Shown in pieces: positions 612 to 28,533 of a stretch of DNA of 64,000 nucleotides (positions within the stretch are counted from its first letter, which is position 1; each line of letters starts with the position of its first letter). The notes beneath the pieces are model-generated. The model did no database searches. It was not told where the DNA came from and worked only from the letters and a program-made list of their open reading frames with translations. The stretch is taken from contig JBCCXA010000009.1 of assembly GCA_039192515.1 (NCBI GenBank), forward strand, positions 925 to 64,924. The letters are read 5' to 3'. Source of the stretch: Verrucomicrobiota bacterium (GTDB taxonomy: Bacteria; Verrucomicrobiota; Verrucomicrobiia; Methylacidiphilales; JBCCWR01). The translations under genes and the position numbers were made by a program.

Positions 612-795
612 TTCTCTCTTTTAATTAAATCTTAATTATAGTTCTTTGAAATAACCTGATCTGGAGACAGGGGTCTTCATCACCAGAGATCCACTAGTAG
701 TGAGATGTTTGCTATATCTCAACATTTTTAAAGTTCTTCTATACAGATGGGAATTTCGCTTTCATTCCGTTTTGTCGGTGGCAGTCTATGGTATC

Positions 796-1875
796 ATGAG
801 ATTTCGGTTAGCTTTGGTGACAGGTGTGGCTTTATTGTTGGTGGCCGTGTATTTTGTTCGTTCATCTATCATCAACAAACATAATCCTTTGCCCAGTGAG
901 ACCTTCTTGACATATGAGGTTCCAAAAATAACGGATCGATCACCCGCCGCACAAGCAAAGGCAGCACATGATTTTCTGGGTCTTTTAAATGAAAAATTAA
1001 AGAAAAAAACACTTTTTAATTTAGACTCAGAAGAGCGAAGAAAATGGACGAACTATCCTCCTAAACGAAATGAAATGGGAGCTAGATTGGGTGAGCTAAA
1101 TGTAGAGCAGATTCAAGCAGCTATGCGACTTTTAGCGACGGTGCTAAGTGAAGCAGGTTATTATAAGGCTCGTAGTATTCCTCTGGGTGACGATCAAACC
1201 GTTCCCGAAGGGAAGCGATACCATGGATTTGGTACACAAGATTATCGGGTAGTAATATTTGGAAATCCATCTGAAAGTGAATCATGGGCGTTGCAGTTTG
1301 ATGGCCATCATCTTGCGATTAATGTGAGTATTCATGGTGAAAAAATGTCACTTTCGCCCTCTTTGTTTGGAACACAACCTCACTACTTTAAACTGGGAGA
1401 GCGTGAATTTCGTCCTATTGAGCCGTTTACCGATAAGGCGCATGCCGTAGTTAATACCCTTCAGCCAGAGCAACAGTCTCAAGCTATCTTGTCAGATGAA
1501 AGCAAGGACACAAGGTTGGCGTATCCTGAAAATGATGGCGAAATCCCCGAGCTTGTGGGTATTAAGGGTAGTGAGCTTAACCAAGAGCAAAAAGACTTGA
1601 TGATCAGTTTGATATCAGAATACGTAAATTGTTTGCCAGACCATGCTTCTCAGCCAAGGATCCAATCCTTAAGCAAAGAAGTGGATCAAATGTACTTTTC
1701 CTGGAACGGAGCGACTGCGAAAAAAAGTCCCATGTCCTATCGAATCCAAGGACCGTCTATTATCATAGAATATGCGTGCCAGTTATTTAGTCCGGACCCA
1801 CTGGATCAGATTGATCATATTCATACGGTGTATAGAGATCCAAGTAATGAGTATGGTCAGAAATTTATGAAGTGA
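796..1875 (+). CDS. DUF3500-family exported protein
   Basis: Motifs WALQFDGHHLAIN, YRIQGPSIIIEY and HIHTVYRDPSNEYG. ATG 796 (in frame with the ORF at 700) is followed by a signal/anchor-like MRFRLALVTGVALLLVAVYF. Confidence 0.75.
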   Translation: MRFRLALVTGVALLLVAVYFVRSSIINKHNPLPSETFLTYEVPKITDRSPAAQAKAAHDFLGLLNEKLKKKTLFNLDSEERRKWTNYPPKRNEMGARLGELNVEQIQAAMRLLATVLSEAGYYKARSIPLGDDQTVPEGKRYHGFGTQDYRVVIFGNPSESESWALQFDGHHLAINVSIHGEKMSLSPSLFGTQPHYFKLGEREFRPIEPFTDKAHAVVNTLQPEQQSQAILSDESKDTRLAYPENDGEIPELVGIKGSELNQEQKDLMISLISEYVNCLPDHASQPRIQSLSKEVDQMYFSWNGATAKKSPMSYRIQGPSIIIEYACQLFSPDPLDQIDHIHTVYRDPSNEYGQKFMK

Positions 1876-1947: not shown

Positions 1948-2718
1948 CTAATTCGCAGGCATTAATGTCTCCACATGGTGGAGCAATTGAGTAATAGTAT
2001 GAGCAAGTATTGGTGCGGGGAGGATATGAGGTTGGTTTTTGAGTATGGTTATGTCAAATGAACCATCAGCGTAGTCTTTCCATTTTTTGATATCTTCCAC
2101 TTCAAGAAGAGTATCTGAATCTGAAGCGGTTACGAAAATAGGGCAGGTTAATTTTTCAACTTTAGTACGTTGGTAGTTTTCACAGTTGCGAAAGTCACTT
2201 CGTAATAGAGGCTCGACGAGTGACATGGTTTCTTCATCCTCGATAATCGCTTGGGGGAGGCCTCCAAGTTTGGCGACAGCCTTGCGAAAGGCCGTAGTGT
2301 CAAGGTGAGCAAGCTTTTCGGAGAGGGGTTGATGAGGTGGCCGAGAGGCTAAAGGGAGAAAAGCAAGTGGCAAAGTCATTTGTAGGGATTGGAGACGGTT
2401 GATAATTTCATAACCAAGCAAAGCACCCATGCTGTAGCCTAATATCATAAAAGGCTGGTCCATATAAGGCATTAGTTCTTTCGTTAATTGGTTAGCGAGA
2501 CCTTCAAGAGATTGAGGAATGGGTTCTTTGGCACGACCCTCTCGCCCAGGATAACAAACTGGGCAGATGCTATATCCAGGAGAATCGAGGTTCATCAAGG
2601 GGTAAAAAATGCTGGCTCCACCACCTGCAGGTGGGAGGCAAAATAAACGCACACTTGTTTGTGGGAGAAGGCGTCCCATACGGTAGATAAGTACAACATT
2701 GCTATTTGGTGTGGTCAT
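1948..2718 (-). CDS. Stand-alone (type II-like) thioesterase
   Basis: LFCLPPAGGG, nucleophile motif GYSMG, LLRSDF, C-terminal His. Last gene of the NRPS operon. Confidence 0.85.
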   Translation of the reverse strand: MTTPNSNVVLIYRMGRLLPQTSVRLFCLPPAGGGASIFYPLMNLDSPGYSICPVCYPGREGRAKEPIPQSLEGLANQLTKELMPYMDQPFMILGYSMGALLGYEIINRLQSLQMTLPLAFLPLASRPPHQPLSEKLAHLDTTAFRKAVAKLGGLPQAIIEDEETMSLVEPLLRSDFRNCENYQRTKVEKLTCPIFVTASDSDTLLEVEDIKKWKDYADGSFDITILKNQPHILPAPILAHTITQLLHHVETLMPAN

Positions 2719-2745: not shown

Positions 2746-5700
2746 TTATATTTCAATTTCAATATGATCTTCGGATTTCTCGGACAGGTTACTCGAAATG
2801 AGTAGTGCATCAATGTGATTGGCTAAGTCTAAAAGGATAGGGCACTCGAAATGGACTCGAAGGGGCAATTCGACATCGAATTCTTTTCGTAGGCGGGTAT
2901 TGGCACGAGTAGCAGAGAGGGAATGGCCTCCTAGTTCGAAGAAATGAGCATTGGCTCCGATAGTTTCAATATTGAGCATTTCACTCCAAATTTTAGCGAT
3001 GGTTTCTTGAGTAGAATTTTCTAAGGGTTGGAATTCTTGTTTGCTTGAAATAGGATCTGGAAGGGCTTTGTGATCTATTTTACCGTTTGTGGTAAGAGGA
3101 AATTTAGATAGTACTACCCATCTATGAGGAATCATGGCTTCCGTTAAGTGAGCTTTGAGGTAGCCTTCAAAGTGTGCTCTTGGATTCTCGGCAATACTAA
3201 TAGATTTGTCTTCTAAGACAAGATAAGCAACTAGTTCTCTTGATGAAGGGAGTTGTGAGACATGTGATTGTTTTACAGATGGGTGCTCGTTGAGGGGGTA
3301 TTCAATTTCTGCGAGTTCAATACGTTGACCGCGAATTTTGATTTGATGGTCATTTCGGCCTAAAAACTCAATTGTTCCATCGGCAGCATAACGAGCGAGG
3401 TCTCCAGTGCGGTAAAGAACTTCAGAGGAGGAAGGTGTATTTTGCTTATAGTATGGATTGGGGATAAAGCGTTCTGCTGTTAGGTCAGCTCTTTGAGCAT
3501 AGCCACGCGCTAAGCCGATGCCACCAATATAGAGTTCGCCTTCGACTCCTGTAGGAAGCTCATTTAGGTCTTGATCGAGGATATGAATGCTTGTATTAGC
3601 AATAGGCTTGCCTATGGGCACCTGCGTCATAGCCTGCCCTTGGTCACAAGACCAATGGGTGACATCGATGGCCGCCTCGGTAGGGCCATAAAGGTTTTGC
3701 AAGGAGGTGTTGGGCAAGAGTTCTTTGCATTTGGCGACAGTAGAGGGATTCAACTTCTCACCACTGCAAATGATGAGACGCAGGCAGGTACACTTGACGA
3801 CTTCGGATATTTCTAAAAGCACTTCGAGCATTGGAGGTACAAAATGAAGTACGGTGATTTTTTCTTTTTGAATCAATTCGACTAAGGCTTGACCGTCTTT
3901 GTGTTGCTCTGGTTCCGCTAGTACTAAGGTTGCACCTGTCATGATAGGCCAGAAAAATTCCCAAACAGACACATCAAAGCCAACAGGGGTTTTCTGCAAA
4001 ACACGGTCAGAAGAGGTAAGTGAGTATTGTTCTTGCATCCATAGCAAACGGTTGGCAAGCGCTTGATGCGTATTAATCACCCCCTTTGGTTTGCCTGTAG
4101 AGCCGGAGGTATAAATGAGATAGAGTGCTTGGTCAGGATTTGGATTACTCGGAATGTGTGGGATGGAGAGTGTTTTCTCTAATTCCTTTTCGTTTGCCCA
4201 ATCGATCACTCTGCAGTTTGTTTTGAGCTCTTGTAGGTTTTGTCTTTGATCTGTAACTATGGCAACGGGCGTACTTTCCTCTAACAAGCTTTGTAGACGT
4301 GCTTTCGGGTAAGAAGGGTCTAATGGGAAGTAAACGGCATTGGCTTTGAGAATAGCCAAGAGAGTGATAGGTAGTTCTAGGGAGCGTTCTAGATAGACAG
4401 CAACGGGTTGTTCAGGTCCTGCTCCAGTTTTTTTGAGTAGTGCAGCAAGCTGTGATGCTTTTTCATGAATTTCTTTGTAGTTAAGGTTTATTCCTCTGAA
4501 GCGCAGTGCAGTCATTGCAGATTCAGCAAATTGTTCAATGGGTTCAGTAATTGAGAGGGCGTGCTCTTTCCAATTTTGTTCAGTTGCATTCCATGATTGA
4601 ACTATTTTTCGTTCTTCCTGTGTATAGAGGGTAATGGATGAGAGTGGTTGATCAGGGTTGCAGAGAATTTGTTGAAGGATTTCATTGAGATGTGAAAAGA
4701 GGTTATGAATCATTGACTGAGAAAAGCGAGGTTCCTGATACTTTGCTTTGATGGTAAGGGTATCATTTTCGATGGCTAATAAGGTCATTGGAAAGTGTGT
4801 CCATTCATCGAATTCAGTACCATCTAGTCTAAGATTATCTTGTTTTTCGTTACTGCCAGCGGGAAGGGGATAGCTTTCTAGCACAAATAGCCAATCGAAG
4901 AGTGGGTTACCTTGATTGGTCCAAGACTGGATATCACGCAGAGCAACATATTCATAGGAGGAAGCGTCAGCCTGGTGTTTCTGGAGGTCTTTTAGCCACG
5001 TGATGATGGGAGCTTGTGGTAGCAGTGAAAGAGAGACGGGAAGGGTATTAATGAAAAGGCCGACCATTTTCGTAGAATCAGGTAAATTACTAGGCCGTCC
5101 AGAAACAGTATGTCCTAATGTCACATTTCGGGAGTCTTGATATCGACCAAGAAGAATACCTATGATACCGAGTAAAAGGGTGTGTAGGGTAACCTGGTGT
5201 GTTTGTGTCCATTGACGAATAGCATTACTCTGTTCGGAAGAAAAGACAAACGACTCTTCGCCAAATTTTTTAGCATTTTCTTGGTGAGAACTAGAGGAAA
5301 ATGATTCTGCAACCAAGGATTCGGTCCAGAATTTTTCGGCCTGTTCAGCATTTTGTTTGAGTAGCCAGGCAATGTAGTCTTTGTAGCGGCTGCGAGAAGC
5401 TTGGATAGGTGATACTGTTAGACCTTTAGCAAGTGCGAAGTAGTCAGTGAGAACTTCTTGTAAGACTTGTCCAGCTGACCACCCATCTAAAATGAGGTGG
5501 TGATAACACCAGACTAATTTAAAGGAAGAGTCAGAGAGACGGATTAAATGAAATCTGGTTAATGGAGCAGATTGTAGATTGAAACCTTCACTTTGATTAG
5601 CTGCTTGCAAGGCCTTTAGTTTTTTATCTTGTTGCTTAGGACTATCTGACCAGTCTAGTTCGATCCACTGTAATGAAACTTCATGATAGACGACTTGGAA

Positions 5701-5919
5701 TGGTTCATCACGCTGCTCCCATTGAAAACCTGTGCGTAGGATTTCATGCCGATGTAAAGCTCTTTCCCAGGATTGCTTAAGGATTTGCGTGTCGAGATTT
5801 CCTGACAAAGAAAGAACAATTTGGGGAATGTAGATTCCTTTTTCAGGAGCCAGTAGTGAGTGGAATAAAAGCCCTTGCTGTGTTGAGGATAATGGGTAGA
5901 TGTCTGCGATATTTGGCAT
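2746..5919 (-). CDS. NRPS, C(DCL-type)-A(Ser)-PCP
   Basis: IYPLSSTQQGLLFH and HHLILDGWS (DCL-like). A-domain cores YTSGSTGKPKG and YGPTE. Specificity code read by eye is DVWHISLIDK (Ser-type). PCP GGHSL. No TE or R domain; ends EDHIEIEI. Confidence 0.92.
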   Translation of the reverse strand: MPNIADIYPLSSTQQGLLFHSLLAPEKGIYIPQIVLSLSGNLDTQILKQSWERALHRHEILRTGFQWEQRDEPFQVVYHEVSLQWIELDWSDSPKQQDKKLKALQAANQSEGFNLQSAPLTRFHLIRLSDSSFKLVWCYHHLILDGWSAGQVLQEVLTDYFALAKGLTVSPIQASRSRYKDYIAWLLKQNAEQAEKFWTESLVAESFSSSSHQENAKKFGEESFVFSSEQSNAIRQWTQTHQVTLHTLLLGIIGILLGRYQDSRNVTLGHTVSGRPSNLPDSTKMVGLFINTLPVSLSLLPQAPIITWLKDLQKHQADASSYEYVALRDIQSWTNQGNPLFDWLFVLESYPLPAGSNEKQDNLRLDGTEFDEWTHFPMTLLAIENDTLTIKAKYQEPRFSQSMIHNLFSHLNEILQQILCNPDQPLSSITLYTQEERKIVQSWNATEQNWKEHALSITEPIEQFAESAMTALRFRGINLNYKEIHEKASQLAALLKKTGAGPEQPVAVYLERSLELPITLLAILKANAVYFPLDPSYPKARLQSLLEESTPVAIVTDQRQNLQELKTNCRVIDWANEKELEKTLSIPHIPSNPNPDQALYLIYTSGSTGKPKGVINTHQALANRLLWMQEQYSLTSSDRVLQKTPVGFDVSVWEFFWPIMTGATLVLAEPEQHKDGQALVELIQKEKITVLHFVPPMLEVLLEISEVVKCTCLRLIICSGEKLNPSTVAKCKELLPNTSLQNLYGPTEAAIDVTHWSCDQGQAMTQVPIGKPIANTSIHILDQDLNELPTGVEGELYIGGIGLARGYAQRADLTAERFIPNPYYKQNTPSSSEVLYRTGDLARYAADGTIEFLGRNDHQIKIRGQRIELAEIEYPLNEHPSVKQSHVSQLPSSRELVAYLVLEDKSISIAENPRAHFEGYLKAHLTEAMIPHRWVVLSKFPLTTNGKIDHKALPDPISSKQEFQPLENSTQETIAKIWSEMLNIETIGANAHFFELGGHSLSATRANTRLRKEFDVELPLRVHFECPILLDLANHIDALLISSNLSEKSEDHIEIEI

Positions 5920-5934: not shown

Positions 5935-6642
5935 TTAGAATTCAAGGTTGGGATGGTTAATGTGAAGGGTATGTGTTTTGGCAGATGCTTCACAAAATTT
6001 TGTGAGTAGGCTCAAAATAAGCTCAGTACCTTTTTTCGCATTTGATGCAGCAGAGTCACCTAGGCAGTCGACGTTCATGATGATTTTAGAAGTGTCCGGA
6101 GAAATGAGAGTTTGACAGGAATTTCGCCAATTCCAACGTCGGCACATGACCTCGTTGCCTACTACATAAATGAGTTCTTCTGGCTCTGGAGATTCTTGTT
6201 TGGCATCTTTGCCCAACGGTAAAAAGGATTCCTGTCCAGTTGCTTTTCTTAGCTGCAAAGCATCGCCATATGATTGTGCACGTTCGACATCATCTCCTCC
6301 AACAGGAATTTGTAATCTAAGAGAGGCTATATTCATAATAGCAACAACTTTCGAGATAAAAGGGAGTTGAACCTCAAGTTTTTGAACCCTTTTGAGCAAA
6401 TTTTTGTGGGCAGGAGGAAATTTATTCGGGTTTGATCCGAATTGGCGATGAACTTTATCCCAAGATTGCACACTGGAAAGGTCATTGGGTGTGCTTAAGC
6501 TTTTGACTATAGCCTCTGCTTCTCTTAGCAGCTCAGTTAGCTCAGCACTTTCGCCTTGATTGTTGATTCCTTCTGCAATCACGATTCCTCGGTGAAAATG
6601 CGGTGCTAATTCGAATACTTCTGGTTTTAATTCTATTTTCAT
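5935..6642 (-). CDS. Stand-alone B3/B4 (PheRS editing-like) domain protein
   Basis: WDKVHRQFGSNPNKFPPAHKNLLKR, ISKVVAIMNIASL..QIPVGGDD, ELIY and VMCRRWNWR match the stand-alone B3/4 family pattern. Confidence 0.8.
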   Translation of the reverse strand: MKIELKPEVFELAPHFHRGIVIAEGINNQGESAELTELLREAEAIVKSLSTPNDLSSVQSWDKVHRQFGSNPNKFPPAHKNLLKRVQKLEVQLPFISKVVAIMNIASLRLQIPVGGDDVERAQSYGDALQLRKATGQESFLPLGKDAKQESPEPEELIYVVGNEVMCRRWNWRNSCQTLISPDTSKIIMNVDCLGDSAASNAKKGTELILSLLTKFCEASAKTHTLHINHPNLEF

Positions 6643-6660: not shown

Positions 6661-9600
6661 CTAGAGATCTTTCAGGAGCTGGTCAAGTTCACCGGGTTTG
6701 AAATCCATAAGAGAAAAATCAGATTCGCTGTAACCGGATCCTGATTGAGGATTGATGCAGAAATCTGTGAGTTCTTTAATCTCTTTTTCAAGTCTTTCCA
6801 CAAGGGTTTGGATGGTTTTGCTCTGATGAAGGCTTGGATTGTACATCCAATAAATTTTTAAAGTTTTCTCTGAAATAATTGCGTTAATGTCGAAGAAAAC
6901 ATCACGTTTATCCTCCGGATGGCGAGCCTTACCAGAAGATTCAGTTGCTCTTCCGAAAAAGGAAGAATTATTTAGGAGTTGATCGGTCTGGCCTAGATAA
7001 TTAAAGCGAATAGATGGCAAACTAGATTTAGCGTAACCTCTTAAAACGCCATAGCTTAGCCCTTCATCAGGAAGCTGGTGAAATGCTTCTTTCACACTTT
7101 TTAATGAATCATCTAAAGTCTGATTAGTATTTGTTGGAAAGGATACAGGGAAGAGGCTAGTCAGCCAACCTACGGTTCGTGAAAGGTTAAGGTTGGAGTC
7201 TCCTTGTTGGCGCCCATGGCCTTCTAATTGGATGCCTAAGGAGTGATGCTTAGTCCAGGAGGTAACTGTCCGGGCAAGTGCAGCCAAAAGAAGTTCGTCT
7301 ACTTTGATTTTATAGTTTTTAGGAACTTCATTGAGTAGTTTCGCCGTTGCATCCTCGTTTATAATAAGGGAAGCTGTTTCTGCTTCACCCATGAAGATCT
7401 TGCCTGATGGGTCATCGACGGGTAAAGGTGATTGCAATGAGTTTTCTTCAATTTGTTTCCAAGTTTTTTCTGTTCCTTTGAATGCACGTCGGTTTAAGTC
7501 TTCCACCCATTTTGAGACTGTTGAAGAAGGAGGCATGAGTTCCGCGCTGCCAATTTTACCGATTTGAGCATAGAAGTTCTGAAGATCAAAGAGTAGAATG
7601 CGCCAGGAAATACCATCGATAAGTAAGTGATGGCAGACAATGAGAAGGCGGCGGCAAGGTGACTTGGTATTTGCATTTAGTTCAAAATAAACAAGGTGCC
7701 ATAGAGGACCGTTTGTGAGGTTAAAACCCGATTGTATAGAAGCAGCAACCTCTTCTATTTTTTTTTGTGGTTCATCTGTTGTTTCAACAATTTTTGTGAA
7801 TGGTGCTTTTTTAGGAATTGGAGTGTAAGTTTGTTTCCAACTACCATTTGTTTTAGTGTATATTGATCGGAGGGCGGGATGTTGGCGGTAGAGGGTATGT
7901 GCTGCTTGTTCCAATTGGTCGATATTAAGAGGCTCAAGAATACTGAGCAGAATAGATTGATTCCAGTGATTAGGATGATTTAAGGGAAGTTTGAAGAACC
8001 ATTCCTGGATAGGTGTTAAGGGCACCACGATTTCTTGATCTTCTGGGAGATGTTCCTGAGTGTGATTCTGACCAACCTGTGCTACGGTTGCAAGACCTTC
8101 GATAGTTGGATGTTGGAAGAGGTCTCGCGGAGTAAAGCTAATACCTTCTTGTTGAGCTTTAGCAATGACTTGTAAGATAAGAATGGAATCTCCACCTCGT
8201 TGGAAAAAATTATCTTTTATACCAATCTTTTCTACTCCAAGAACAGTTTTCCAAATAGCTAGTAGCTGTGTTTCGCAGTGATTTCTTGGAGAGTAGATTC
8301 GCGCACTTGTCAAATTCTCTAGGTCAGGAAGAGCGCCACGATCGATCTTACCATTAGAAGTTAGAGGGAGTTTTTTAATGGCACGAATAGCTGAGGGGAT
8401 TATCTGTTGAGGCAGTTGCTCCGATAAAAATTGTATTAGCTTATCTTCTGATATATCACTTTCAACAAAAGCGACGAGCTGGTTTTTGCGAAGGACAACA
8501 CAAGCATCTTTGATACCCTTGTGACTGCGAAGGACGGACTCAATCTCTCCTGGTTCGATACGGAAACCTTTGAATTGAAATTGCTCATCATACCTTCCCA
8601 AGTATTCAAGTATTCCATCTTGGCGGAGTAATGCCTGGTCACCCGTCCGATACATAATAGCTCCGACTGATGGGTTTGAAGCGAATGGGTTGGGTAGAAA
8701 TTTCTCTTTGGTTAATTCCTGTTGATTCCAGTAACCCTGAGCAACACCGCTCCCAGAAATATATAATTCTCCAGCGATGCCAATAGGCTGTAGATTTAAG
8801 CTTTCATTGAGAACATAAAGTTGAGTGTTGGCGATTGGTAAGCCTATGGGAATATTCTCATAGGTGAGGTTTTTTTCTTGGACCTCATAAATACAACAAC
8901 CCACAACCGTTTCTGTAGGACCATACTCATTGAAAATTCGAACTTGGGGGTAGTTCTCGCGCCAGAATTTGACATGTCCTGCGGTCAATGCTTCGCCACC
9001 TACAACTATGGCTTTGGGCAGTTGATCAGTAGCTAAATCTTTTGGGAAGATAGGTTCTAAAGCAGATAGGTGAGCAGGCGTTAGTTTGACTACACTAGGG
9101 CCAGTTTGCATCACTTCTGATAGTGCTAAGATCACATTCTCTTCAGGAAGCAAATGAACGGCTTTGCCTGTGAGTAGGGGTGCTAGAAGGCTAGTAATGG
9201 TTGCATCGAATCCGATGGAGCTTTGGACCGGTGACCCCCAACCTTCTGTATATGGATAGCTTTCCAAAGCGTGGTGGAGGTAGTGCATGAGTCCTTCATG
9301 AGAAACAGTAACTCCTTTGGGTTTTCCAGTTGATCCAGATGTATAAAGAATATAACAAGAGAGGTTATTTCTCAAAGCCGGAAGAGGAAGCTCGTTCTTA
9401 GTAAGAGGTAGTGCAGCTAACGAATCTAAGACCAATGTGCATCCAGCATTCTCAGTCATGTAGTCTTGCCTAGCCTTTGGGAGCTGAGGATCTATAGGAA
9501 CGTAGATGCCACCAATTTTCATAACGGCAATTACGGCGATGACTAGATCGGGAGTTCGAGGTAATTTAAGCCCCACGGTATTTCCGGATTCTATTCCTTT

Positions 9601-12600
9601 GGCTTTTAGGCCTTGGGCGACAAGATTAGATTTTAGATCGAGTTCACGATAAGTAATTACATCTTGATTCCAGCGAACTGCGATAGCAGTAGGCTGAAGT
9701 GTTGCTTGTGTTTGAAATGCGTCGATAAAGGTCCCGGATTTGAAAGACTTTTGTTCCCCCTTTGAGTATCTAAGGATACAAGATCGTTCCTCTTCAGGAA
9801 TAAAAGCCAAGGATGTAACAGGTTTTTCTGAGTTTTGAGTAAGGGCTTCAAGAAGCTTTTTGAAATGCTTAGCCATGCGTTCAATACGTGCATGAGCAAA
9901 CAAATCACTTCGGTATTCAAACCGTCCTGTTAATGAACCATCGTTATTTTGTGACATCGAGAGCGTGAGATCAAATTTCGCAGTAGAGGCGGGAAGGGGG
10001 AAAGGTTCTATGGTAAGGTCGTGGTTGGTAAATTGAGGAATCTTAGTGTCAGTTTGCCAAAGGAAAAATGTCTGAAAGACAGGTGAGTGGTCCCAACTTC
10101 TCTCAGCTCCTAAAGAAGAGACTATTTGCTCAAAGGGTACACTTTGATTCTCAAAGCCATCCAAGACTGTTTGTCTAACGAGTCTTAAAATATCATGGAA
10201 ACTTTGATGTTTTTGAATGCGAGTGCGTAGCGCTAGTGTATTGACAAACATGCCAACGACTTCTTCCCATTCAGAATTGGGGCGGTGTCCTATGGGACTG
10301 CCTATGATCAAATCTGTTTGATTCGTGTAACGGAACAAGAGTACTTTGAAAGCAGCTAGCAAGGCCATATAGAGTGTAGCCTCATGATCTTTTGACAGAT
10401 TACTGATTTGCTTAGTTAGTTCCCTCGAGATAGTAAAACGCAATTCTGAAGCAACTGGTTTTGCATCAGTATGACGAGGGAAATCAAGCGGCAAATCAAG
10501 AGTGGGGGGTAGATTTTCTAGCTGTTTTTTCCAATATTGTAAGCTGTCGGCTTGGTCTCCTTTTTGCTCATTATAGGCGTAGTCACTATATTGAAGTTTT
10601 AATGTTTTTAGCTCCTCTTTTTGGGCGATAGTTAAGAGATCTCTTAATAAAATTCTTAAGGACCAAGCATCACCGATTAGGTGAGGGATAACTAATAAGA
10701 TAATATGTTGATTAGGTTGTGATTTAAAACAGGAAATTCTTAAAAGGGGTGTATCTGAAAGGTCGAAAGGTTTGTAAGCTATCTTTTGTAATGCGTTACG
10801 AATCTCTTGCTGTCTTTTTTCTTCAGGTAGATGGCTTAAGTCTAAATAATTTAATGAAGGTAGCTTGGCTTTATCTTGCAATACTGGCTTGGGTTTTCCT
10901 GCTTGGTCAGCTGGAAAAGATGTATGAAGTACTTCGTGACGTTGGCAAAGTGTCTGCAGTGCTTGCTCAAGTTGATTGGTATTGAGTGATCCTTGGACTT
11001 GGATTGCTACTGGAATATTATACGAAGGGTTGTCGGGATCAAGTTGTGTAAGAACCCATTGCCTTTGTTGTGCGTGTGATAGAGTAATCGGAATGTTTTT
11101 TGGGCGTTTCTGAATAGGCTTGCTTTGTATTCTATGTGAAGAATCAATAGCTTGGGCAAATTCATGAATAGTAGGATCATCAAATATTGTACGAAGCGGG
11201 AGTTCAACGGAAAAATTTGATCTAACTTGCGCGATCATACGAGCTGCAAGAAGGGAGTGTCCACCAGCTTCAAAAAAGTTAGTGTTACCGTTTGTTAAAG
11301 GGCGTTCTAAAAGTTCTCCCCAAATCTTAGCAAGCTTTTCTTCCGTTTCGGTGACTAAGGGTGAGATAATTTCTTCAAGCTCATGTTGGAATTGTTCTCC
11401 AGGCTGAGGGAGTTTTTTTCGGTCAACTTTGCCATTGGGGTTTAAAGGAAAGGTTTTCAGAACTTGGTATTCTGAGGGAATCATATAACTTGGAAGTTGT
11501 TTGACCAAAAATTGTTTGAGCTTAGGAATAGATAAGTCGGTACTGGGAGATTGGCACCAAGCAACAATGCGCTTTTGTGTTTCAGATCCATGAAGAGATA
11601 CCACAACTGCTTCAATATTTGGGAATTCTAATAGCCTGGATTCAATCTCACTGAGTTCGATGCGGAAGCCTCGTAATTTTATTTGGTGATCGATTCTCCC
11701 CAAAAACTCAAGTGTGCCGTTTGCTTTGAACCTGGCGCGGTCACCTGTGGCATAAAGTCGAGTGCCTCTAAAACTTGTGAACTTCTTCGCTGTTAGACTT
11801 TCTTGCTTGTGATAGCCAGGGCTTAGACCAAGACCTGATAAGTAGAGCTCTCCAGGGATACCAATAGGCATTTCATTATATTGCTCATCCAAGATATGGA
11901 ACCCTGTATTGGCTAATCTTCCACCAATGGGAATACTTTCCTGGTTTAGATGGCCTTTCGTAATTTCTAAAGCACCAGACCAAATGGTGGTTTCTGTTGG
12001 CCCATAAAGATTCCAAAGTGCAGAACCAGAGGCAAAAAGTTGTTTAGCTAAGCTGGAGTCTAAAGCTTCTCCACCACATAATATCTTGAGGTCAGGTGAG
12101 CCTCTCCAGCCGCACTCAAGGAGTAGCCTCCAGCTTGCAGGTGTTGCCTGCATGATGGTGGCTTGGGATTTCTCAAGCAGATGGGTTAAAGCAAATCCAT
12201 CCGAAGCTGTTTCTTCATCAGCAATCCAAAGATGTGCACCAACCATCAGAGGCAATAACAATTCCAATGTTGCGATGTCAAAGGCAATAGTTGTGACAGC
12301 TAAAAGAGTATCTGATGCATTTATGCCAGGTGCCTCAGCCATCGACTCAAGAAGGTTGACGAGGCTCCCATGCTGAATGGGAACGCCTTTGGGTTTTCCA
12401 GTGCTTCCACTGGTGAAAATAATATAGGCAAGAGCGTCTTGTTTTACTGTGATAGGTAGAGGTTCTTTTGAATTTTGGGCAATGAGGGCGGCATCACAGC
12501 TGAGATCAATTACTCGAATACTTTTGTCCGATGATGGAGGTGAGTTACCATTTACAATGATTGTTTTTGCTTCCGAGTCCTCCAGAATCATCTTGAGTCG

Positions 12601-14355
12601 TTCTTCGGGGTGTGATGGGTCCAGCGGCACATAGGGGGATCCACTTTTAAGTATGGCAAGAAGCGAGATCACAAGTTGTTCCGAGCGTGGCAAGCAAAGA
12701 GCGATAGGTGAATTTGAGTTTTGGCTTTGAGAGTGTAGGTAATGGGCAAGTTGATTAGACTTATTTTCTATTTCTTCATAAGTGTAGTGCTGTTTATCAA
12801 AACTAACTGCGGTATCTTTAGGCTTGAGTTGAACTATTTGAGAAATTAATTCATGGATACTTAAGGAAGAAATTTCTTTGGCTGTGCAGTTCCAATTATT
12901 AATCTGTTGCTGCTCTTTGGGGGTAATGAGATTGTGCTTGGAGATAGCTTGGTCAGGAGCATTTACGGCTGCATGTAAGAGAAGCTTAAGATGTTCTGCA
13001 AGCCGTGAAATGGTTTCTTGGTCAAACAAGTCGACGTTGTATTCCAAAAATCCTTGATAACCGTTTTTGGTTTCTCCTACTTCTAGGCTCAAGTCAAAGC
13101 GAGAGCTTATTTTGTCTGGCGCAATGGATTCAAAGTGTAAGGATTGCTTGGCTTTTCCATGGGAGTCTGACTCGGTCTCAGTTCTTAGCAAAAATTGAAC
13201 TTGGAATAGGGGGTTATGGCTCAATTGGCGGTCAATCTTTAAAACATCCACCACTTGTTCGAAAGGGATTTGTTGATGTTGGAAGGCTTCGAGAACTTCT
13301 TTGTGTGTGTTGTTTAGCCATTGACGGAAAGTCCATTGAGAAGTTGGCTGACATCGGAAGACTAGATTGTTGACGAAAAGCCCTATAAGGTTGCGTGTCT
13401 CCTCTCGTTCACGATTAGAAACAGTGGAACCAATACAAAAGTCTTCTTGGCCTGAATAACGAAATAAAAGAGCTTGTAAGATAGAGAGTAGTGCACTGAA
13501 GCATGTCGTACGTTCTGCTTTTGCTAACAAAGCTAAAGCTTCCGAATCCTTTTTTGAGAATTCAATAGGTAGGCGTGATCCATTGAAAGTTTGGCGTTTT
13601 AGCCTAGGACGGTCTGATGGAAGTTTGAGTAGAGGGGAGACACCGTCTAATTTTGTTTTCCAGTAATCGAGTTCAGATTGCAATTTGTCTTGTTGGCTTT
13701 CTTGCCAAACGGCATAGTCGACATATTGGATTTCTAAGGGTGGCAGTTTACTTTTTTCGTTTGAGAGATAGCAGCCGTAGATATATTGCAATTCTCCCAT
13801 AAGGACGCGAAGTGACCAAAAATCAGCAATGATGTGATGAATGACGAGGTGGAGAAGCGTACAACCGCAATCATCCTTACCTAGTTTGGCTCGAATCAGG
13901 GGCAGCTCAGATAGAGTGAAAGGGGATTGGTAAAGTTGTTCTATATCGTTGGCATGGCCCGATCGTAATGCAGGCAATACATACTGTGGTTCAATGATTT
14001 GCCAAGGTGTTCCTTCTTCGGAAATGAAGCGAGTACGCAAAATTTCATGGCGAGAAATGATATCATTAAAGGACTTATAAAGAATCGTTTCGTTAACCTC
14101 ATCTGCGATTTTAAGTGTCGCAGGGATATGATAAACTGTTAAGCCAGGTTGAAGCTGGTCAATAAACCAAAGCCTTTGCTGGGCTGGAGATAGTGGGAAT
14201 CGTTTTTTTTTGTGCGACGCTTTTGAAGTCTTAGTGTCAGTAGATTTTTCAGCAAGAAGTTTAGCTAGAAGCTGGCGCTTTTCTTCAGCACTCAGCTTGG
14301 ACAGATCTGCTTTCTCATGGGCAGATTTAGAAAGTAAATTGTTCTCGTCCTTCAT
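6661..14355 (-). CDS. NRPS, C-A(Gly)-PCP-C-A(Asn)-PCP-E
   Basis: Codes read by eye: DILQLGLIWK (Gly) and DATKVGEVGK (Asn-type). PCPs GGHSL and GGDSI. The terminal E domain has HHLLIDGISW, EGHGR and RTVGWLTS. Start placed at ATG 14355 (AGGA RBS upstream), overlapping the upstream gene's stop. Confidence 0.92.
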   Translation of the reverse strand: MKDENNLLSKSAHEKADLSKLSAEEKRQLLAKLLAEKSTDTKTSKASHKKKRFPLSPAQQRLWFIDQLQPGLTVYHIPATLKIADEVNETILYKSFNDIISRHEILRTRFISEEGTPWQIIEPQYVLPALRSGHANDIEQLYQSPFTLSELPLIRAKLGKDDCGCTLLHLVIHHIIADFWSLRVLMGELQYIYGCYLSNEKSKLPPLEIQYVDYAVWQESQQDKLQSELDYWKTKLDGVSPLLKLPSDRPRLKRQTFNGSRLPIEFSKKDSEALALLAKAERTTCFSALLSILQALLFRYSGQEDFCIGSTVSNREREETRNLIGLFVNNLVFRCQPTSQWTFRQWLNNTHKEVLEAFQHQQIPFEQVVDVLKIDRQLSHNPLFQVQFLLRTETESDSHGKAKQSLHFESIAPDKISSRFDLSLEVGETKNGYQGFLEYNVDLFDQETISRLAEHLKLLLHAAVNAPDQAISKHNLITPKEQQQINNWNCTAKEISSLSIHELISQIVQLKPKDTAVSFDKQHYTYEEIENKSNQLAHYLHSQSQNSNSPIALCLPRSEQLVISLLAILKSGSPYVPLDPSHPEERLKMILEDSEAKTIIVNGNSPPSSDKSIRVIDLSCDAALIAQNSKEPLPITVKQDALAYIIFTSGSTGKPKGVPIQHGSLVNLLESMAEAPGINASDTLLAVTTIAFDIATLELLLPLMVGAHLWIADEETASDGFALTHLLEKSQATIMQATPASWRLLLECGWRGSPDLKILCGGEALDSSLAKQLFASGSALWNLYGPTETTIWSGALEITKGHLNQESIPIGGRLANTGFHILDEQYNEMPIGIPGELYLSGLGLSPGYHKQESLTAKKFTSFRGTRLYATGDRARFKANGTLEFLGRIDHQIKLRGFRIELSEIESRLLEFPNIEAVVVSLHGSETQKRIVAWCQSPSTDLSIPKLKQFLVKQLPSYMIPSEYQVLKTFPLNPNGKVDRKKLPQPGEQFQHELEEIISPLVTETEEKLAKIWGELLERPLTNGNTNFFEAGGHSLLAARMIAQVRSNFSVELPLRTIFDDPTIHEFAQAIDSSHRIQSKPIQKRPKNIPITLSHAQQRQWVLTQLDPDNPSYNIPVAIQVQGSLNTNQLEQALQTLCQRHEVLHTSFPADQAGKPKPVLQDKAKLPSLNYLDLSHLPEEKRQQEIRNALQKIAYKPFDLSDTPLLRISCFKSQPNQHIILLVIPHLIGDAWSLRILLRDLLTIAQKEELKTLKLQYSDYAYNEQKGDQADSLQYWKKQLENLPPTLDLPLDFPRHTDAKPVASELRFTISRELTKQISNLSKDHEATLYMALLAAFKVLLFRYTNQTDLIIGSPIGHRPNSEWEEVVGMFVNTLALRTRIQKHQSFHDILRLVRQTVLDGFENQSVPFEQIVSSLGAERSWDHSPVFQTFFLWQTDTKIPQFTNHDLTIEPFPLPASTAKFDLTLSMSQNNDGSLTGRFEYRSDLFAHARIERMAKHFKKLLEALTQNSEKPVTSLAFIPEEERSCILRYSKGEQKSFKSGTFIDAFQTQATLQPTAIAVRWNQDVITYRELDLKSNLVAQGLKAKGIESGNTVGLKLPRTPDLVIAVIAVMKIGGIYVPIDPQLPKARQDYMTENAGCTLVLDSLAALPLTKNELPLPALRNNLSCYILYTSGSTGKPKGVTVSHEGLMHYLHHALESYPYTEGWGSPVQSSIGFDATITSLLAPLLTGKAVHLLPEENVILALSEVMQTGPSVVKLTPAHLSALEPIFPKDLATDQLPKAIVVGGEALTAGHVKFWRENYPQVRIFNEYGPTETVVGCCIYEVQEKNLTYENIPIGLPIANTQLYVLNESLNLQPIGIAGELYISGSGVAQGYWNQQELTKEKFLPNPFASNPSVGAIMYRTGDQALLRQDGILEYLGRYDEQFQFKGFRIEPGEIESVLRSHKGIKDACVVLRKNQLVAFVESDISEDKLIQFLSEQLPQQIIPSAIRAIKKLPLTSNGKIDRGALPDLENLTSARIYSPRNHCETQLLAIWKTVLGVEKIGIKDNFFQRGGDSILILQVIAKAQQEGISFTPRDLFQHPTIEGLATVAQVGQNHTQEHLPEDQEIVVPLTPIQEWFFKLPLNHPNHWNQSILLSILEPLNIDQLEQAAHTLYRQHPALRSIYTKTNGSWKQTYTPIPKKAPFTKIVETTDEPQKKIEEVAASIQSGFNLTNGPLWHLVYFELNANTKSPCRRLLIVCHHLLIDGISWRILLFDLQNFYAQIGKIGSAELMPPSSTVSKWVEDLNRRAFKGTEKTWKQIEENSLQSPLPVDDPSGKIFMGEAETASLIINEDATAKLLNEVPKNYKIKVDELLLAALARTVTSWTKHHSLGIQLEGHGRQQGDSNLNLSRTVGWLTSLFPVSFPTNTNQTLDDSLKSVKEAFHQLPDEGLSYGVLRGYAKSSLPSIRFNYLGQTDQLLNNSSFFGRATESSGKARHPEDKRDVFFDINAIISEKTLKIYWMYNPSLHQSKTIQTLVERLEKEIKELTDFCINPQSGSGYSESDFSLMDFKPGELDQLLKDL

Positions 14356-17300
14356 GATTATTTTCCTGATCTGCTGGAGTAAGAGATGCGATCTGTTGTT
14401 TCCGGTCGATTCGTTTGCTAAGCGTAGATACAGTAGGTGCATCAAAGAGGTCGATTACGGTAAGTTCGACTCCAAATGTTTCTACAACTTTGGCGATCAG
14501 TTGGGTTACTAAAAGCGAATGTCCACCGAGCTCGAAGAAATTTTCTTCGACTCCAATCTCATCTATTTCCAGCGTAGCGGTAAAAATATCGGCAAGTTTG
14601 ATTTCAGTAAGTGTTTGCGGAGGTGTTCTGACTGTTACTCGATTATCATTTGGTTCCGGTAGTGCTTTTTCGTCAAGCTTTCCATTCGGAGTAAGAGGTA
14701 GTTCATCTAGCCAAATGAAGGCAGAAGGAATCATGAATTTGGGCATTTTTTGTGAGAGATATAATTTAATTTCCTCATCACTTTCGTGTTGTTTCTTGTG
14801 GGGAATTGCATAAGCCACGAGTCGCTTATTACCCTTATCAGATGTTTTGACCCTAACGAGGCCAACCTTGATGTCTGGATGTGTTTCTAAAACAGTTTCT
14901 ATTTCTTGTAGCTCAATGCGGTAGCCACGGATTTTTGTTTGGTGATCAGTTCTTCCCAGAATTTTAATTCGTCCATCAGAAAGGTACGAAGCAAGATCTC
15001 CACTTTTATAAAGTAGTGGGATATTGTAGTTACGTCCTTTGACCGGAGGAAATGGATTCGGAATAAATCTCTCTGCTGTAAGTGATGGACGATGATGGTA
15101 TCCACGAGCGAGACCTATACCCCCAATATGAAGTTCACCAACAACTCCTGGTGGGCATATTTCCAAAGAGTCATTTAGTACGTATAATTGTTTATTTGCA
15201 CTAGGTGTGACTGTGGGTGTGAGTGGAGCACCATTTCCGCAGGTTACCATACTAGCATTGACACTTGTCTCTGTAGGACCGTAAGCGTTGATGAATTTTC
15301 GGCCTTGGCTCCAGTGCTCAATTAACTCCTGTGGGGGCGCTTCACCTCCCACTAGAACCATCTTCAGTGAAGGATATTTATGTGCAGGAAGAGCATTTAG
15401 GGCAGATGGTGTTATGGTGATATGACTTACCTGGTGCTTATTAATCAAATCGCGCAGTGAGGGGCCGGGAAGTAAGTTTTCGGCTGGTGCAAGGAGTAGC
15501 TTAGCTCCAGCGGCGAGTGTCATAACAAATTCAGGAACAGAGCCATCAAAACTGAATGAGAAAAATTGAAGAATACAATCATCTGAGGTTATCTCACAAA
15601 CCCGAATTTTATCCTCTGTTAAGTTAACAAGTCCGCGATGTTGAATAAGTGTGCCTTTAGGTTTTCCAACGGAACCTGAAGTATAGATAAGATAGGCTAG
15701 ATTATCAGGTTGGACATTTGTTTTTGGATTTTTTGAAGAATAAGATGAGAGTGAGATTGTGTCTAGATTGATACGAGTCAGAGTTTTTTCAACTGAATCC
15801 TCAATAGTGAAATCACCGGTGGTAATGAGTGCTGATGAACCTGAGTCGGATAAAAGGAAGCGGAGCCGTTCTTCGGGGTAAGTGCGATCAAGAGGTAAGT
15901 AGGCAGCTCCAGCTTTTAGAACAGCAAGTAATGAAATGACCATTTCAAATGAGCGCTCTACAGCTATGCCAACGACACTTTCGGGTTTAATTCCCTTTTC
16001 GATGAGGAAATGAGCTAGCTGATTGGCACGTTCATTTAGCTTTCGATAGTTGAGTTCGGTAGAGCTTCCGTTGTCAAAAACTAGAGCAATAGCTTCAGGT
16101 GTGCGTTCGACTTGAGCTTCAAAAAGCTGGTGATAGCAAAGTGAATCTTTGAATGGCTTATCATGCGAATTCCATGATTGAAGATAAGCTTGTTCTTCTG
16201 TTTTAGTAAAAATGGAAAGCCCGGAAATGGGTGAAGTTGAGTTTTGGATAATCGATTTTAAAAGACCAAGAAAATGGTTGGACATTCTATCAACAGTCTC
16301 TCTTTTGAAGAGATCGGAGTTGTATTCGAATCCTCCAACAAGTCCTTCATCTGTTTCATAGAGATCGAGTCCTAAATCATGTTTGGCAGAAATCTGTTCT
16401 TGTGCAAGGGGCTTAAGACTTAAGCCTGGGAGCTGTAGTTCTGAGGTGGAAGCTCTCTCTAACTGAAATTTTACTTCGAAGATAGGACTTCTACTCATAT
16501 CCCGTTCAGGCTGAATCGCTTCAACGAGTTTTTCAAAGGGAAGGTCTTGATTTTCGTAAGCAGATAGAGTTGTGGAACGAACTTGTTTTAGTGTGTCTAT
16601 AAAGCTTGCTGTCGGAGAAATTTGAGTTCGTATGACAATGGAGTTGACGAAAAAGCCTATCAAGCTTTGGACTTCGTATCGGTGCCTATTGGCAATGGGG
16701 CATCCGACTAGGAGGTCATTTTGTCCAGTGTAGCGGTTCAAAAGTAATTTGTATGCGGTTAGCAAAACCATGAATAGGCTCGCCGATTGGTGCTGGCCAA
16801 TTTCTCGAAGTTGTTGAGTTATTTTATCAGGAATATTGAAGTGAACCATATCACCATTCGAGGTTTGCATTCTCTGGCGCGGGTAGTCAGTGGGTAGGTC
16901 AAGAGTTGGAAGTTCTCCAGAGAGTTGTTTTTTCCAATAATCTAATTGGTTTTTGAGTCCTGCATCATCCAAGGACTTGTGTTGCCAGATAGCAAAGTCA
17001 GCATATTGGATGGGAAGAGGAGTAAACTCAGGTTTAGTTCCTAAGAGGTGCGAGCGATAAGCCTGAACCAGTTCCTTGATTAGAACTTCAAAAGACCAAC
17101 CGTCAGTAATTATATGATGAAAACAAAAAAGGATCACAAATTTTTCATCCTTTATTTGATAAGCTGATGCTCTGAAAAGAGGTGCTTGATCTAGGGAGAA
17201 GGGGGTTGTTGCCATGATCTCAATTTCCTCCTTAATATGAGACTCAGGGCTTGGCTGGTCGCGGTGGTCATCAAAGATAAAATCGATAATTGCTCGGCTG

Positions 17301-17740
17301 AGAATTTCTTGAACTGGTTCACCTTTAATTGAAATAAAACGGGTTCGTAGTATTTCATGTCGTTCTATGAGTGTGTTTAGACTCTCTTCTAGAATTTCTA
17401 GATCTAAAGTACCTTGCAGCTCTAGAGCAAAGGGGACATTATAGGTCCAGGATTCAGGTTGCATTTCTTGCAGAAACCAGAGTCTTTGCTGCGAAAATGA
17501 GAGTGGAATTTTCTGTGGGCGAGGGTCACAACGCTCAATTTGAGCTGTTTTCGGCGTGTCTCTGGGAGCCGATAAAAAGGAAATAATTTCGGCTTTTTGC
17601 TGAGAAATTTGCTCTTTAAACTCATTAATAATCTTGGCAGAACCGCTGATTTTCAATTTGCCTTTAACGACCTGTAGGTTAATACCCCGATTTTGTAAGT
17701 CTGCTAAAAATGAAGTAATATTGGAGCTTTTAGCTTTCAA
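14327..17740 (-). CDS. NRPS, N-terminal docking domain-C(LCL)-A-PCP, substrate unclear
   Basis: LSFSQQRLWFL, HHIITDGWS, YTSGSVGKPKG, YGPTE, GGHSL. Code read as DGPTLGAVNK. The N-terminus ITSFLADLQNRGINLQVVKGKLKISG resembles a beta-hairpin (TubC-N type) docking domain. TTG start. Confidence 0.92.
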   Translation of the reverse strand: MKAKSSNITSFLADLQNRGINLQVVKGKLKISGSAKIINEFKEQISQQKAEIISFLSAPRDTPKTAQIERCDPRPQKIPLSFSQQRLWFLQEMQPESWTYNVPFALELQGTLDLEILEESLNTLIERHEILRTRFISIKGEPVQEILSRAIIDFIFDDHRDQPSPESHIKEEIEIMATTPFSLDQAPLFRASAYQIKDEKFVILFCFHHIITDGWSFEVLIKELVQAYRSHLLGTKPEFTPLPIQYADFAIWQHKSLDDAGLKNQLDYWKKQLSGELPTLDLPTDYPRQRMQTSNGDMVHFNIPDKITQQLREIGQHQSASLFMVLLTAYKLLLNRYTGQNDLLVGCPIANRHRYEVQSLIGFFVNSIVIRTQISPTASFIDTLKQVRSTTLSAYENQDLPFEKLVEAIQPERDMSRSPIFEVKFQLERASTSELQLPGLSLKPLAQEQISAKHDLGLDLYETDEGLVGGFEYNSDLFKRETVDRMSNHFLGLLKSIIQNSTSPISGLSIFTKTEEQAYLQSWNSHDKPFKDSLCYHQLFEAQVERTPEAIALVFDNGSSTELNYRKLNERANQLAHFLIEKGIKPESVVGIAVERSFEMVISLLAVLKAGAAYLPLDRTYPEERLRFLLSDSGSSALITTGDFTIEDSVEKTLTRINLDTISLSSYSSKNPKTNVQPDNLAYLIYTSGSVGKPKGTLIQHRGLVNLTEDKIRVCEITSDDCILQFFSFSFDGSVPEFVMTLAAGAKLLLAPAENLLPGPSLRDLINKHQVSHITITPSALNALPAHKYPSLKMVLVGGEAPPQELIEHWSQGRKFINAYGPTETSVNASMVTCGNGAPLTPTVTPSANKQLYVLNDSLEICPPGVVGELHIGGIGLARGYHHRPSLTAERFIPNPFPPVKGRNYNIPLLYKSGDLASYLSDGRIKILGRTDHQTKIRGYRIELQEIETVLETHPDIKVGLVRVKTSDKGNKRLVAYAIPHKKQHESDEEIKLYLSQKMPKFMIPSAFIWLDELPLTPNGKLDEKALPEPNDNRVTVRTPPQTLTEIKLADIFTATLEIDEIGVEENFFELGGHSLLVTQLIAKVVETFGVELTVIDLFDAPTVSTLSKRIDRKQQIASLTPADQENNHEGREQFTF

Positions 17741-19890: not shown

Positions 19891-19892
19891 TC

Positions 19893-25800: not shown

Positions 25801-25916
25801 CTACTCTAAAACTAGATGACGATTCGGAGACAAAACTTTTAGTGTCCGAAGTTTCTGGCAAGGACATTGCCTCTGAGCTCTTAGCTCTTGAAGAGTTATT
25901 AGAGGAGTCCTCATAA
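19893..25916 (+). CDS. Type I PKS module KS-DH-cMT-ER-KR-ACP lacking an AT domain
   Basis: KS: DTSCSSS, HGTGT, KTNLGH. DH: HQVLGQAVFP and LLDAILQ. MT: LEVGGGTGG and ANVLHAT. ER: LIHSGAGGTG. KR: TGGAGGLG. ACP: FDLGVDSL. Only about 40 aa separate the KS end from the DH start, with no GHSxG. Confidence 0.9.
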   Translation: MNKPQEVSTQYKERLERAMTLIERLKGKLSQQNQSSASTEPIAIVSMACRFPGSVADPEGLWELLENGRDAITQVPSDRWDAEELYDGAPAVPGKVINKQGGFIDKVKEFDPLFFGISPKEAHTMDPQQRILMEVSYEALVRLGMNPKQASSIEAGVFVGVSGTDYARHLSQLSGEQIDPYLATGNSASVLAGRLSYVLRMTGPSLSIDTSCSSSLVAVHLACQSLQNQECELALAGGVNCILTPEVSIAFSQARMLSPRGRCHTFSSKADGFVRAEGCGMVALKKLSKARVDGDQVLGIIRGSAINQDGGSGGLTVPNGHSQQKLIQSALKTSGASPEDLYYLEAHGTGTELGDPVELNALSEVFKESHSPERPLLIGSIKTNLGHMEAAAGIGGLMKVVLSMQHGMLPKHLHFSEPTPHVKWDKIPIKVTDQKVEWPRGSSSLAGVSSFGFSGTNAHVILERSEGSLKNLEPVPSTSNHKRRYWVDIPKNKKRRPLLSHPWLQEMLSVARINSKHLVVSQSLFRDDVLKQHQVLGQAVFPGVGFLELLSAAFKHVYGSKNISLKDVSFARVLSLDSEMPVQIVLKQDTAEVLQQTETGEWQTLCVTMLDQSYQKVHNLSISDFPRYELSEVAPSHVYERLASQGVSYGEAWKLIESLQTKDGYIRAHIKAPQESGGFHYHPFLLDAILQTMAAGFLEKEDDKYTYIPEGVGQVIFHVEKLCGEVFTVLGKMKSGEGWVSADFLLQDEEGADLVTFKDIRLRPLTKNWITRVNRASVKDWFYSVDWKLDNIPSREKGHTPEQLARQLMDDAKEALEVEEIKRYREGLPNLERAAAQLAGIILSKVDSEKVIPEQKVLWRHLHNRAQTEILETSTFTDELQAVFPQEIKLIQRCASEAVAVVEGDQDPMEVLFPKGDSSELTWLYQKSDAAQLLNKQMCLSFAQIRKGLGRPLKILEVGGGTGGTTALLIELLGKDDEYVFTDVSPFLVDEAKQKFGHSEQMLFKTLDLSQSLLEQGFDRNTYDLVIAANVLHATPDIDSSVRKIGELLLTNGYLLLLEGVKPLLWLDLIFGLTKGWWSFNDEWRVDYPLLSSTTWHKLFNSMGWESSTITVGDLPQAVMVAQKRAEKNEKLVIWAEHRQGAGTFAEQIQAGVRNLLSQVKACLSGKPPWPQLVLVTQGATDLHAFHPEQATLWGLSRTIELEFPGLQCLRIDLDPTKTLAEQRDLVNQELENLSRGSVRFRDGKRYVARLQHAEKIESLKIPETDAYELKLENTPTRSLTLAEVEREKPICGDIEIRVQAAGINFIDGLDIAGMLPFERGWLGVECAGEVVSVGDSVTDFKIGDKVMALAPRAFRTYVNVPSVLVAKWPNNIKTAQAAATLPVNFLTAQRALCDIAHLKKGESVLIHSGAGGTGMAAIQVAQHLGATVYATSSRAKWPVLKRLGVKNIFDSRSLGFAVEVIKATQGQGVQVVLNSLTGDYIEKGLSILAKDGRFIELGKRGIWTKEQIGEFRSDIQYHIVDLFSESEQRIKLWRSEGKGDSIFKGLLPVQALPETSFPIQEAPRAVKFFQRSRHVGKVVLDFDRTQSPVRQDASYVITGGAGGLGLETARWLVEQGARHVLLLGRNIPKSDDPRLLIIKEAIEKNWVWFESADVSERAAVEGVLKHAQERAPLRGIFHSAGVLSNATIQELSWDEVNYVFGPKVWGGWHLHELTAHLELDLFVLYSSAASLLGSPGQGNHVAANAFLDALAHHRRSLGLPAQSFNWGAWSQVGSAASQSTQMELAKRGISMIDPQSGIKCLSLALQRPDCCQLGLVRVDWKTLLKAGLSLDPFFEYFARSISKERHENKALKTGKEGEWIKELKNLPRGQWSHYLNKKIREELAQVIGLQAGDLPPADAGFFDLGVDSLMSVDLKNRLALYLATDISPTLIFQHPTISALAQKLTELLENQMNVLGKNKIQSKQSIDVSTLKLDDDSETKLLVSEVSGKDIASELLALEELLEESS

Positions 25917-26693: not shown

Positions 26694-26706
26694 CTTTCTT
26701 CTCCTA

Positions 26707-27576: not shown

Positions 27577-27593
27577 GCCGAGAAAATACTTAA

Positions 27594-27612
27594 ACTGAGA
27601 CTCATGTGCAAT
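27594..27612. promoter_or_regulatory. Fur-like 19-bp operator
   Basis: ACTGAGACTCATGTGCAAT, 18 bp upstream of the 27576 start. 16/19 identical to the box at 32137. Confidence 0.55.
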
Positions 27613-28498: not shown

Positions 28499-28533
28499 GA
28501 GTAGGATTTATGTATCGATCGGAATGTAAAGTT

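Follow-up and report, generated by a model that had tools for sequence, protein, structure and literature searches.

We report that a stand-alone B3/4 protein (P0001), encoded between two NRPS genes in a 64,000-nucleotide stretch of Verrucomicrobiota DNA (hereafter the window), has the fold of the tRNA deacylase CtdA, retains its core and belongs to a clade tied to one family of FAAL-PKS-NRPS clusters. Our data suggest that P0001 is an aminoacyl-tRNA deacylase that would protect the producer from a pathway-associated analogue of an amino acid, a reading to which we assign a probability of about one half. Specifically, the ancestor of this cluster in Verrucomicrobiota would have captured a B3/4 gene of the CtdA sister family once, and the gene would be co-transcribed with the synthetases. 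With the pathway active, P0001 would hydrolyse tRNA that has been mischarged with the analogue, for which the best candidate may be the residue loaded by module 1 of the assembly line (code DGPTLGAVNK) or a derivative released from it, and the expected outcome is that the analogue is kept out of the proteins of the producer.

The B3/4 gene and the surrounding cluster

The genes of the cluster as present in the window are the following, where the specificity codes of the A domains were read by alignment to GrsA.

700..1875, plus strand: DUF3500 protein with an N-terminal membrane anchor, a conserved cluster member (Pfam)
1948..2718, minus strand: free-standing thioesterase with the nucleophile motif GYSMG (PF00975)
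2746..5919, minus strand: NRPS, C-A(Ser)-T, without an integrated TE, downstream of the B3/4 gene (Pfam, code DVWHISLIDK)
5935..6642, minus strand: stand-alone CtdA-like B3/4 protein P0001, 235 aa, ATG start (Pfam B3_4, PDB matches, AF2 and Foldseek)
6661..14445, minus strand: NRPS, C-A(Gly)-T-C-A(Asn)-T-E, upstream of the B3/4 gene (Pfam, codes DILQLGLIWK for Gly and DATKVGEVGK for Asn, which is then epimerised, and E motifs)
14327..17740, minus strand: first NRPS module, TubC_N docking domain-C-A-T, code DGPTLGAVNK (Pfam, code extraction)
17860..19890, plus strand: fatty acyl-AMP ligase-type A domain and ACP, divergent from the NRPS operon (Pfam)
19887..25916, plus strand: PKS module KS-DH-cMT-ER-KR-ACP (Pfam)

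The original prediction had placed the B3/4 gene between two NRPS genes on the same strand with gaps of 18 and 15 bp, and the list of open reading frames and Pfam agree with this. The gap of 18 bp separates it from 6661..14445 (2594 aa) and that of 15 bp from 2746..5919 (1057 aa), and the order of transcription is the C-A-T-C-A-T-E NRPS gene, the B3/4 gene and then the C-A-T NRPS gene. The match of P0001 to Pfam B3_4 (PF03483) covers residues 61-202 with 61.7 bits (gathering cut-off 29.3, E = 8.6e-17), and a search against NCBIfam gave no match. The N-terminus aligns residue for residue with those of the homologues, which supports the ATG start. Scanning positions 1-27000 of the window against Rfam gave no match, hence no guanidine riboswitch, and sequence scans for promoter- and terminator-like sites gave none above chance. 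Since there is no Rfam element and such sites are at the level of chance, the B3/4 gene is most simply regarded as part of the NRPS operon.

In the protein encoded by 6661..14445 the E domain carries the motifs E1, E2, E4 and E7 (PIQEWF, HHLLIDG, EGHGR and FNYLG), and its C-terminus is a COM-like tail. The first and second NRPS reading frames overlap by 119 bp as listed (14327-14445; the listing uses the first TTG); the true start of the 6661..14445 gene is probably further downstream, because the orthologous genes overlap by only ≈29 bp (L098). No AT domain was matched in the PKS (19887..25916) and no AT gene was found among the window genes scanned. The only PDB relative of the DUF3500 protein is 9x86 ('Amc20'), and a fungal DUF3500 protein has been proposed as a ring-cleavage enzyme (bioRxiv 10.1101/2023.06.06.543907).

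Genes for TonB, a TonB-dependent receptor and several PEP-CTERM proteins adjoin the PKS end of the cluster (26007-33154), and it is possible that the lipopeptide is linked to these neighbours, e.g. as a metal chelator. The genome that the window comes from has a second, larger NRPS locus (G000 contig C32) with no B3/4 gene, and a reading frame starting at 52065, at first taken for a second NRPS, was ruled out for want of NRPS motifs.

Fold, catalytic core and pocket compared with CtdA

The sole PDB sequence relatives of P0001 at E < 1e-3 are the CtdA structures 9mkl (S. enterica) and 9f7e (P. canavaninivorans), with E ≈ 1e-18 when the query is the single sequence and ≈ 1e-28 when it is the family profile. 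An AlphaFold (AF2) model of P0001, which was built on 34 homologues (pLDDT 95.2, pTM 0.91), superposes over its full length on both structures in Foldseek (TM 0.84-0.88 over 230 columns). The match to CtdA has a TM-score of 0.85 at ≈25% identity, and the next structural matches are PheRS-beta B3/4 domains with TM 0.5-0.6. Pfam B3_4, the CtdA sequence matches and the fold match hence agree in bearing out the call of a stand-alone B3/4 protein of the tRNA-editing type. P0001 and CtdA are both single-domain B3/4 proteins of ≈230 aa with a CtdA-type helical insert, and both are encoded beside genes handling an amino acid. They differ in that the identity is only 24-30% (local sequence and structural alignments) with a very long branch between them, and in that P0001 is embedded in a PKS-NRPS operon with neither canavanine-catabolism genes nor a guanidine riboswitch. 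The B3/4 domain of PheRS beta shares the superfold and is the second-best structural match, but its identity to P0001 is 10-15% and the topology of its inserts is another one. In PheRS beta this domain carries out post-transfer hydrolysis of Tyr- and m-Tyr-tRNA(Phe). CtdA-type proteins do not replace PheRS editing (PMC12449066).

The pocket of CtdA is formed by N105, G116, E118, C166, Q173 and I189, and mutagenesis has shown that N105, G116, C166 and Q173 matter (PMC12449066). According to the alignment the equivalents in P0001 are N104, G115, D117, C167, N174 and N190; three of the six are identical to CtdA, E118D is conservative, and Q173N and I189N are changed, i.e. the full CtdA pocket is not present. 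Because three of the six residues differ, the specificity for canavanine cannot be transferred to P0001. The close family members that were compared all have the same six residues (122/122), and judged from the alignments the P0001 family is distinct from CtdA, to which it is a sister family, and its pocket is more polar.

Moreover, 37 positions are common to the P0001 family and both characterised CtdAs, and nine or all ten of the cluster-linked proteins (see below) retain 33 of them, including N104 (CtdA N105), G115 (G116), C167 (C166), PVGG and CRRWNWR. With 33 of the 37 common positions retained, the shared catalytic core is intact. Some B3/4 domains in other proteins are non-catalytic, and P0001 might accordingly bind or sense an amino acid or a tRNA and thereby regulate or chaperone the pathway. 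We give this only a very slim chance, since the equivalents of the catalytic residues of CtdA (N105, G116 and C166; PMC12449066) are invariant in the cluster-linked proteins.

Cluster-linked clade, distant clusters and wider family

The nearest homologues of P0001 (58-65% identity) are found on metagenome contigs, the named sources of which are Verrucomicrobiota or Verrucomicrobiales. After extension of the contigs by exact-protein look-ups, all nearest homologues with sufficient flanking DNA were in a syntenic cluster with the order FAAL/PKS divergent from NRPS_B, NRPS_C, B3/4, NRPS_D, TE and DUF3500, and at least four diverged cluster versions besides that in the window carry the B3/4 gene immediately before the Ser module. 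The module codes are kept across the cluster versions, i.e. DGPTLGAVNK, Gly, Ala (Asn in the window) and Ser. In three loci an inserted RND system (OEP-MFP-RND efflux) separates the B3/4 gene from NRPS_C, the second NRPS gene (L001 4319-10004, L004 4313-9989 and L012 4313-9989), and in these versions the start of the B3/4 gene overlaps or closely follows the stop of the pump gene. The DUF3500 gene (L004 14624-15712, L098 22235-23323) overlaps the TE gene by 4 bp in L004 and L095/L098, and in some versions it is replaced, in a mutually exclusive manner, by a gene for a His-rich polytopic membrane protein of 326-328 aa with no Pfam match and with the motifs LHFHYQKQNYG, AHGFQYL and WVHFILDAK. 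The only other B3/4 match in the genome of the window is PheT, on another contig, and there is no other free B3/4 gene. Among 60 genomes of the same order we found neither a B3/4 orthologue nor an orthologous cluster, the best NRPS match being 41% identical.

Following the His-rich membrane protein into other phyla led to more distant clusters that have the same Gly-Ala-E-Ser tail, the membrane protein, TE and MatE. In two Planctomycetaceae MAGs, whose NRPS_D is 48-52% identical to the Verrucomicrobial NRPS_D, only 2 bp separate the two NRPS genes, with no B3/4 gene at the junction. A contig of a Myxococcota MAG carries the PKS, an orthologue of NRPS_B (50% identity, DGPTLGAVNK) and a CmlA-like hydroxylase, and a second contig carries the rest of the cluster. 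No B3/4 gene was found in these two contigs (49 kb together) or in the rest of this MAG, which is incomplete and in which PheT was unmatched too. A reading frame of 234 aa beside the Myxococcota cluster (L110) was considered as a divergent B3/4 protein and ruled out (BLASTP E = 11). That homologous clusters carry the gene thus held for the Verrucomicrobiota versions, which keep it, and did not hold for the Planctomycetaceae junction and the ≈49 kb from Myxococcota. The distant clusters without the gene show that it is an accessory, dispensable for assembly and release of the peptide, and the distribution of the sequences indicates that it was acquired once, in the Verrucomicrobial branch of the cluster family.

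When CtdA is used to root the tree, the ten B3/4 proteins of the cluster type group as a single clade with an SH-aLRT of 99, and the stem leading to it is long. For eight of them the position in the cluster was confirmed; the contigs of the remaining two are too short for a judgement. Comparisons between the main versions are saturated at synonymous positions. Unsaturated pairs gave dN/dS of 0.27-0.31, and these ratios indicate that the B3/4 gene is under purifying selection within the cluster. Several residues are particular to the clade, as placed by sequence adjacency to the pocket residues of CtdA. Following N174 the changes G175S, H176C and R179L are fixed, where residue 179 is Arg in CtdA and the non-cluster clade and Leu in the cluster clade. 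D117 is followed by a likewise fixed insert of three residues that includes an aromatic one, the hk-conserved N106 is A or S, and the cluster-clade proteins are somewhat more acidic than their relatives.

These changes bear on the possibility that the clade has left tRNA altogether and now serves the NRPS line as a hydrolase that proofreads or releases carrier-bound or ester-linked aminoacyl intermediates, so that P0001 would act on a mis-loaded aminoacyl-S-carrier protein, on an aminoacyl ester of the product, or in chain release. G175S, H176C, R179L and the three-residue insert would then mark the switch away from tRNA, and the gene is always located directly before the last module, which itself has no integrated TE. 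We consider such a role improbable. The motifs common to proven tRNA deacylases are fully retained and a dedicated thioesterase is present in every cluster version. A docking domain such as that of the trans-acting CmlA-like hydroxylase in sister clusters is absent from P0001, and COM-like termini point to direct docking between the two NRPS proteins. Furthermore, clusters that predict the same Gly-Ala-Ser tail lack the gene, which is therefore not needed for assembly or release, and a literature search turned up no published case in which a B3/4 fold acts on thioesters. The idea that P0001 is a repurposed editor of mis-loaded aminoacyl-PCP alongside the type II thioesterase, which formed part of the original prediction, hence found no support: there is no docking domain, a thioesterase is present, the core is untouched and homologous lines manage without the gene. 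Editing of aminoacyl-S-PCP nevertheless keeps a low residual probability, because the clade has lost the conserved Arg, has fixed G175S and is more acidic than its relatives. The analogy behind that idea is that a type II thioesterase is also an accessory hydrolase beside synthetases that removes wrong acyl groups. It is, however, an alpha/beta hydrolase with GxSxG and Ser-His-Asp, whereas the fold of P0001 is B3/4 and the chemistry is unrelated, and the PF00975 thioesterase of the cluster is a separate gene (1948..2718).

In the tree the cluster clade is nested in a family with members from Desulfobacterota, Spirochaetota, Nostoc, Acidobacteriota and Proteobacteria. These are free-standing B3/4 proteins of ≈238 aa with invariant FGSNPNKFPPAH, PVGGDD and VMCRRWNWRN (loci L008-L011 and L015-L094), some of which carry the JGI label 'lysyl-tRNA synthetase class 2'. 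The sister family of CtdA comprises 612 cluster representatives at E ≤ 1e-10. Its members outside the biosynthetic clusters have at most 50% identity to P0001 and occur in unrelated contexts. An NRPS C domain within 10 kb was found in none of 80 reference-genome loci of the non-cluster family (0/80), and these loci have no conserved partner gene, the commonest neighbour family being present in just 15 of the 80. The neighbours in question (sensor kinase, PilZ and sigma-54 regulator genes) reflect synteny among close relatives, and a link of the non-cluster subfamily to membrane oxygenases or decarboxylases was not seen in the 80 loci.

The main rival to self-protection comes from this wider family. 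P0001 could be a generic editor acting in trans, without a specific tie to the chemistry of the pathway: a member of a widespread family of housekeeping type that landed in the operon and has been kept for general fidelity of translation or merely through co-expression, in line with all six pocket positions being identical between the cluster clade and 112 non-cluster proteins, with the varied, non-biosynthetic contexts of the non-cluster family in which no partner is conserved, and with the more distant homologous clusters that lack the gene. Such pathway-independent editing is unlikely, given that the gene is absent from the 60 genomes of the same order and in this lineage occurs only inside the cluster, and that its position was kept through saturating synonymous divergence and the insertion of an efflux system. 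The long stem of the cluster clade and the fixed substitutions adjoining the pocket residues likewise argue against it.

Proposed role and the module 1 residue

Self-protection by deacylation of tRNA was the other alternative in the original prediction and is the better fit of the two, in that the core is retained and the gene travels with the cluster. What it does not explain is the source of the analogue: among the conserved genes of the cluster, none could be recognised as producing a non-proteinogenic amino acid in free form. The DUF3500 protein and the His-rich protein that takes its place are both membrane-anchored, and the CmlA-like hydroxylase is of a family whose substrates are carrier-bound. 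Also counting against self-protection are the Myxococcota cluster with the same module 1 code and no B3/4 gene in ≈49 kb, the gene-free Planctomycetaceae junction, the three changed pocket residues, and R179L together with the more acidic character of the clade. Patchy presence in distant clusters is expected of an accessory for resistance or fidelity, because the need for it would be set by how well the synthetases of the host discriminate.

The same protective logic applies to CtdA, the gene of which adjoins canavanine catabolism (PMC10018355), and clustered tRNA deacylases as self-resistance to pathway amino acids were generalised in 2026 for AlaX proteins in BGCs (PMC13149037). In that survey of tR3D, which B3/4 proteins fall outside, 17% of the non-primary AlaX genes are near NRPS, PKS or RiPP genes (PMC13149037). 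The setting of P0001 resembles those of BesG (AlaX family) and the fluorothreonyl-tRNA deacylase (ProX family), where a free-standing editing gene is likewise conserved in a cluster and the same role is proposed. It differs in that the fold of P0001 is B3/4 and not AlaX or ProX, and in that the cluster has no recognisable enzyme making a free non-canonical amino acid. A literature search found no NRPS cluster described as containing a gene of the B3/4 or CtdA type; the kind of system is already known, since clustered tRNA deacylases have been published for AlaX, ProX and CtdA.

If P0001 has the proposed role, it would provide the first functional handle on the large sister family of CtdA. The idea that a tRNA deacylase marks a pathway for a non-canonical amino acid would then extend from AlaX to the B3/4 family, and would reach PKS-NRPS clusters of uncultured Verrucomicrobiota. 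Moreover, knowing what the deacylase hydrolyses would directly indicate which residue the DGPTLGAVNK module loads. For this reason, studying the A domain and the deacylase as a pair would be a quick way to reach an antimetabolite amino acid that may be new.

The unusual A-domain code that had been noted in the cluster is that of module 1 (gene 14327..17740), DGPTLGAVNK, which to our knowledge has no equal among A-domain codes. It agrees with the codes for Tyr and beta-hydroxy-Tyr at five of ten positions, and a literature search found no published description of it. Exactly the same code is present in L098, in L099 and in the Myxococcota genome G061. The suggestion that the B3/4 gene fits with this code has to be given up as an obligatory link, since the Myxococcota cluster retains DGPTLGAVNK and the ≈49 kb of sequence obtained from it contain no B3/4 gene.

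Finally, in two loci, on Verrucomicrobiota-type and Myxococcota contigs, a CmlA-like di-iron beta-hydroxylase gene is present directly after module 1 (L099 10001-11902; L121, G061:C29, 10621-12522), and the protein of L099 has a TubC_N docking domain of its own. The substrates of CmlA-type hydroxylases are aromatic or aliphatic residues bound to a carrier, and the presence of the gene suggests that in these versions the residue selected by DGPTLGAVNK is beta-hydroxylated on the carrier.
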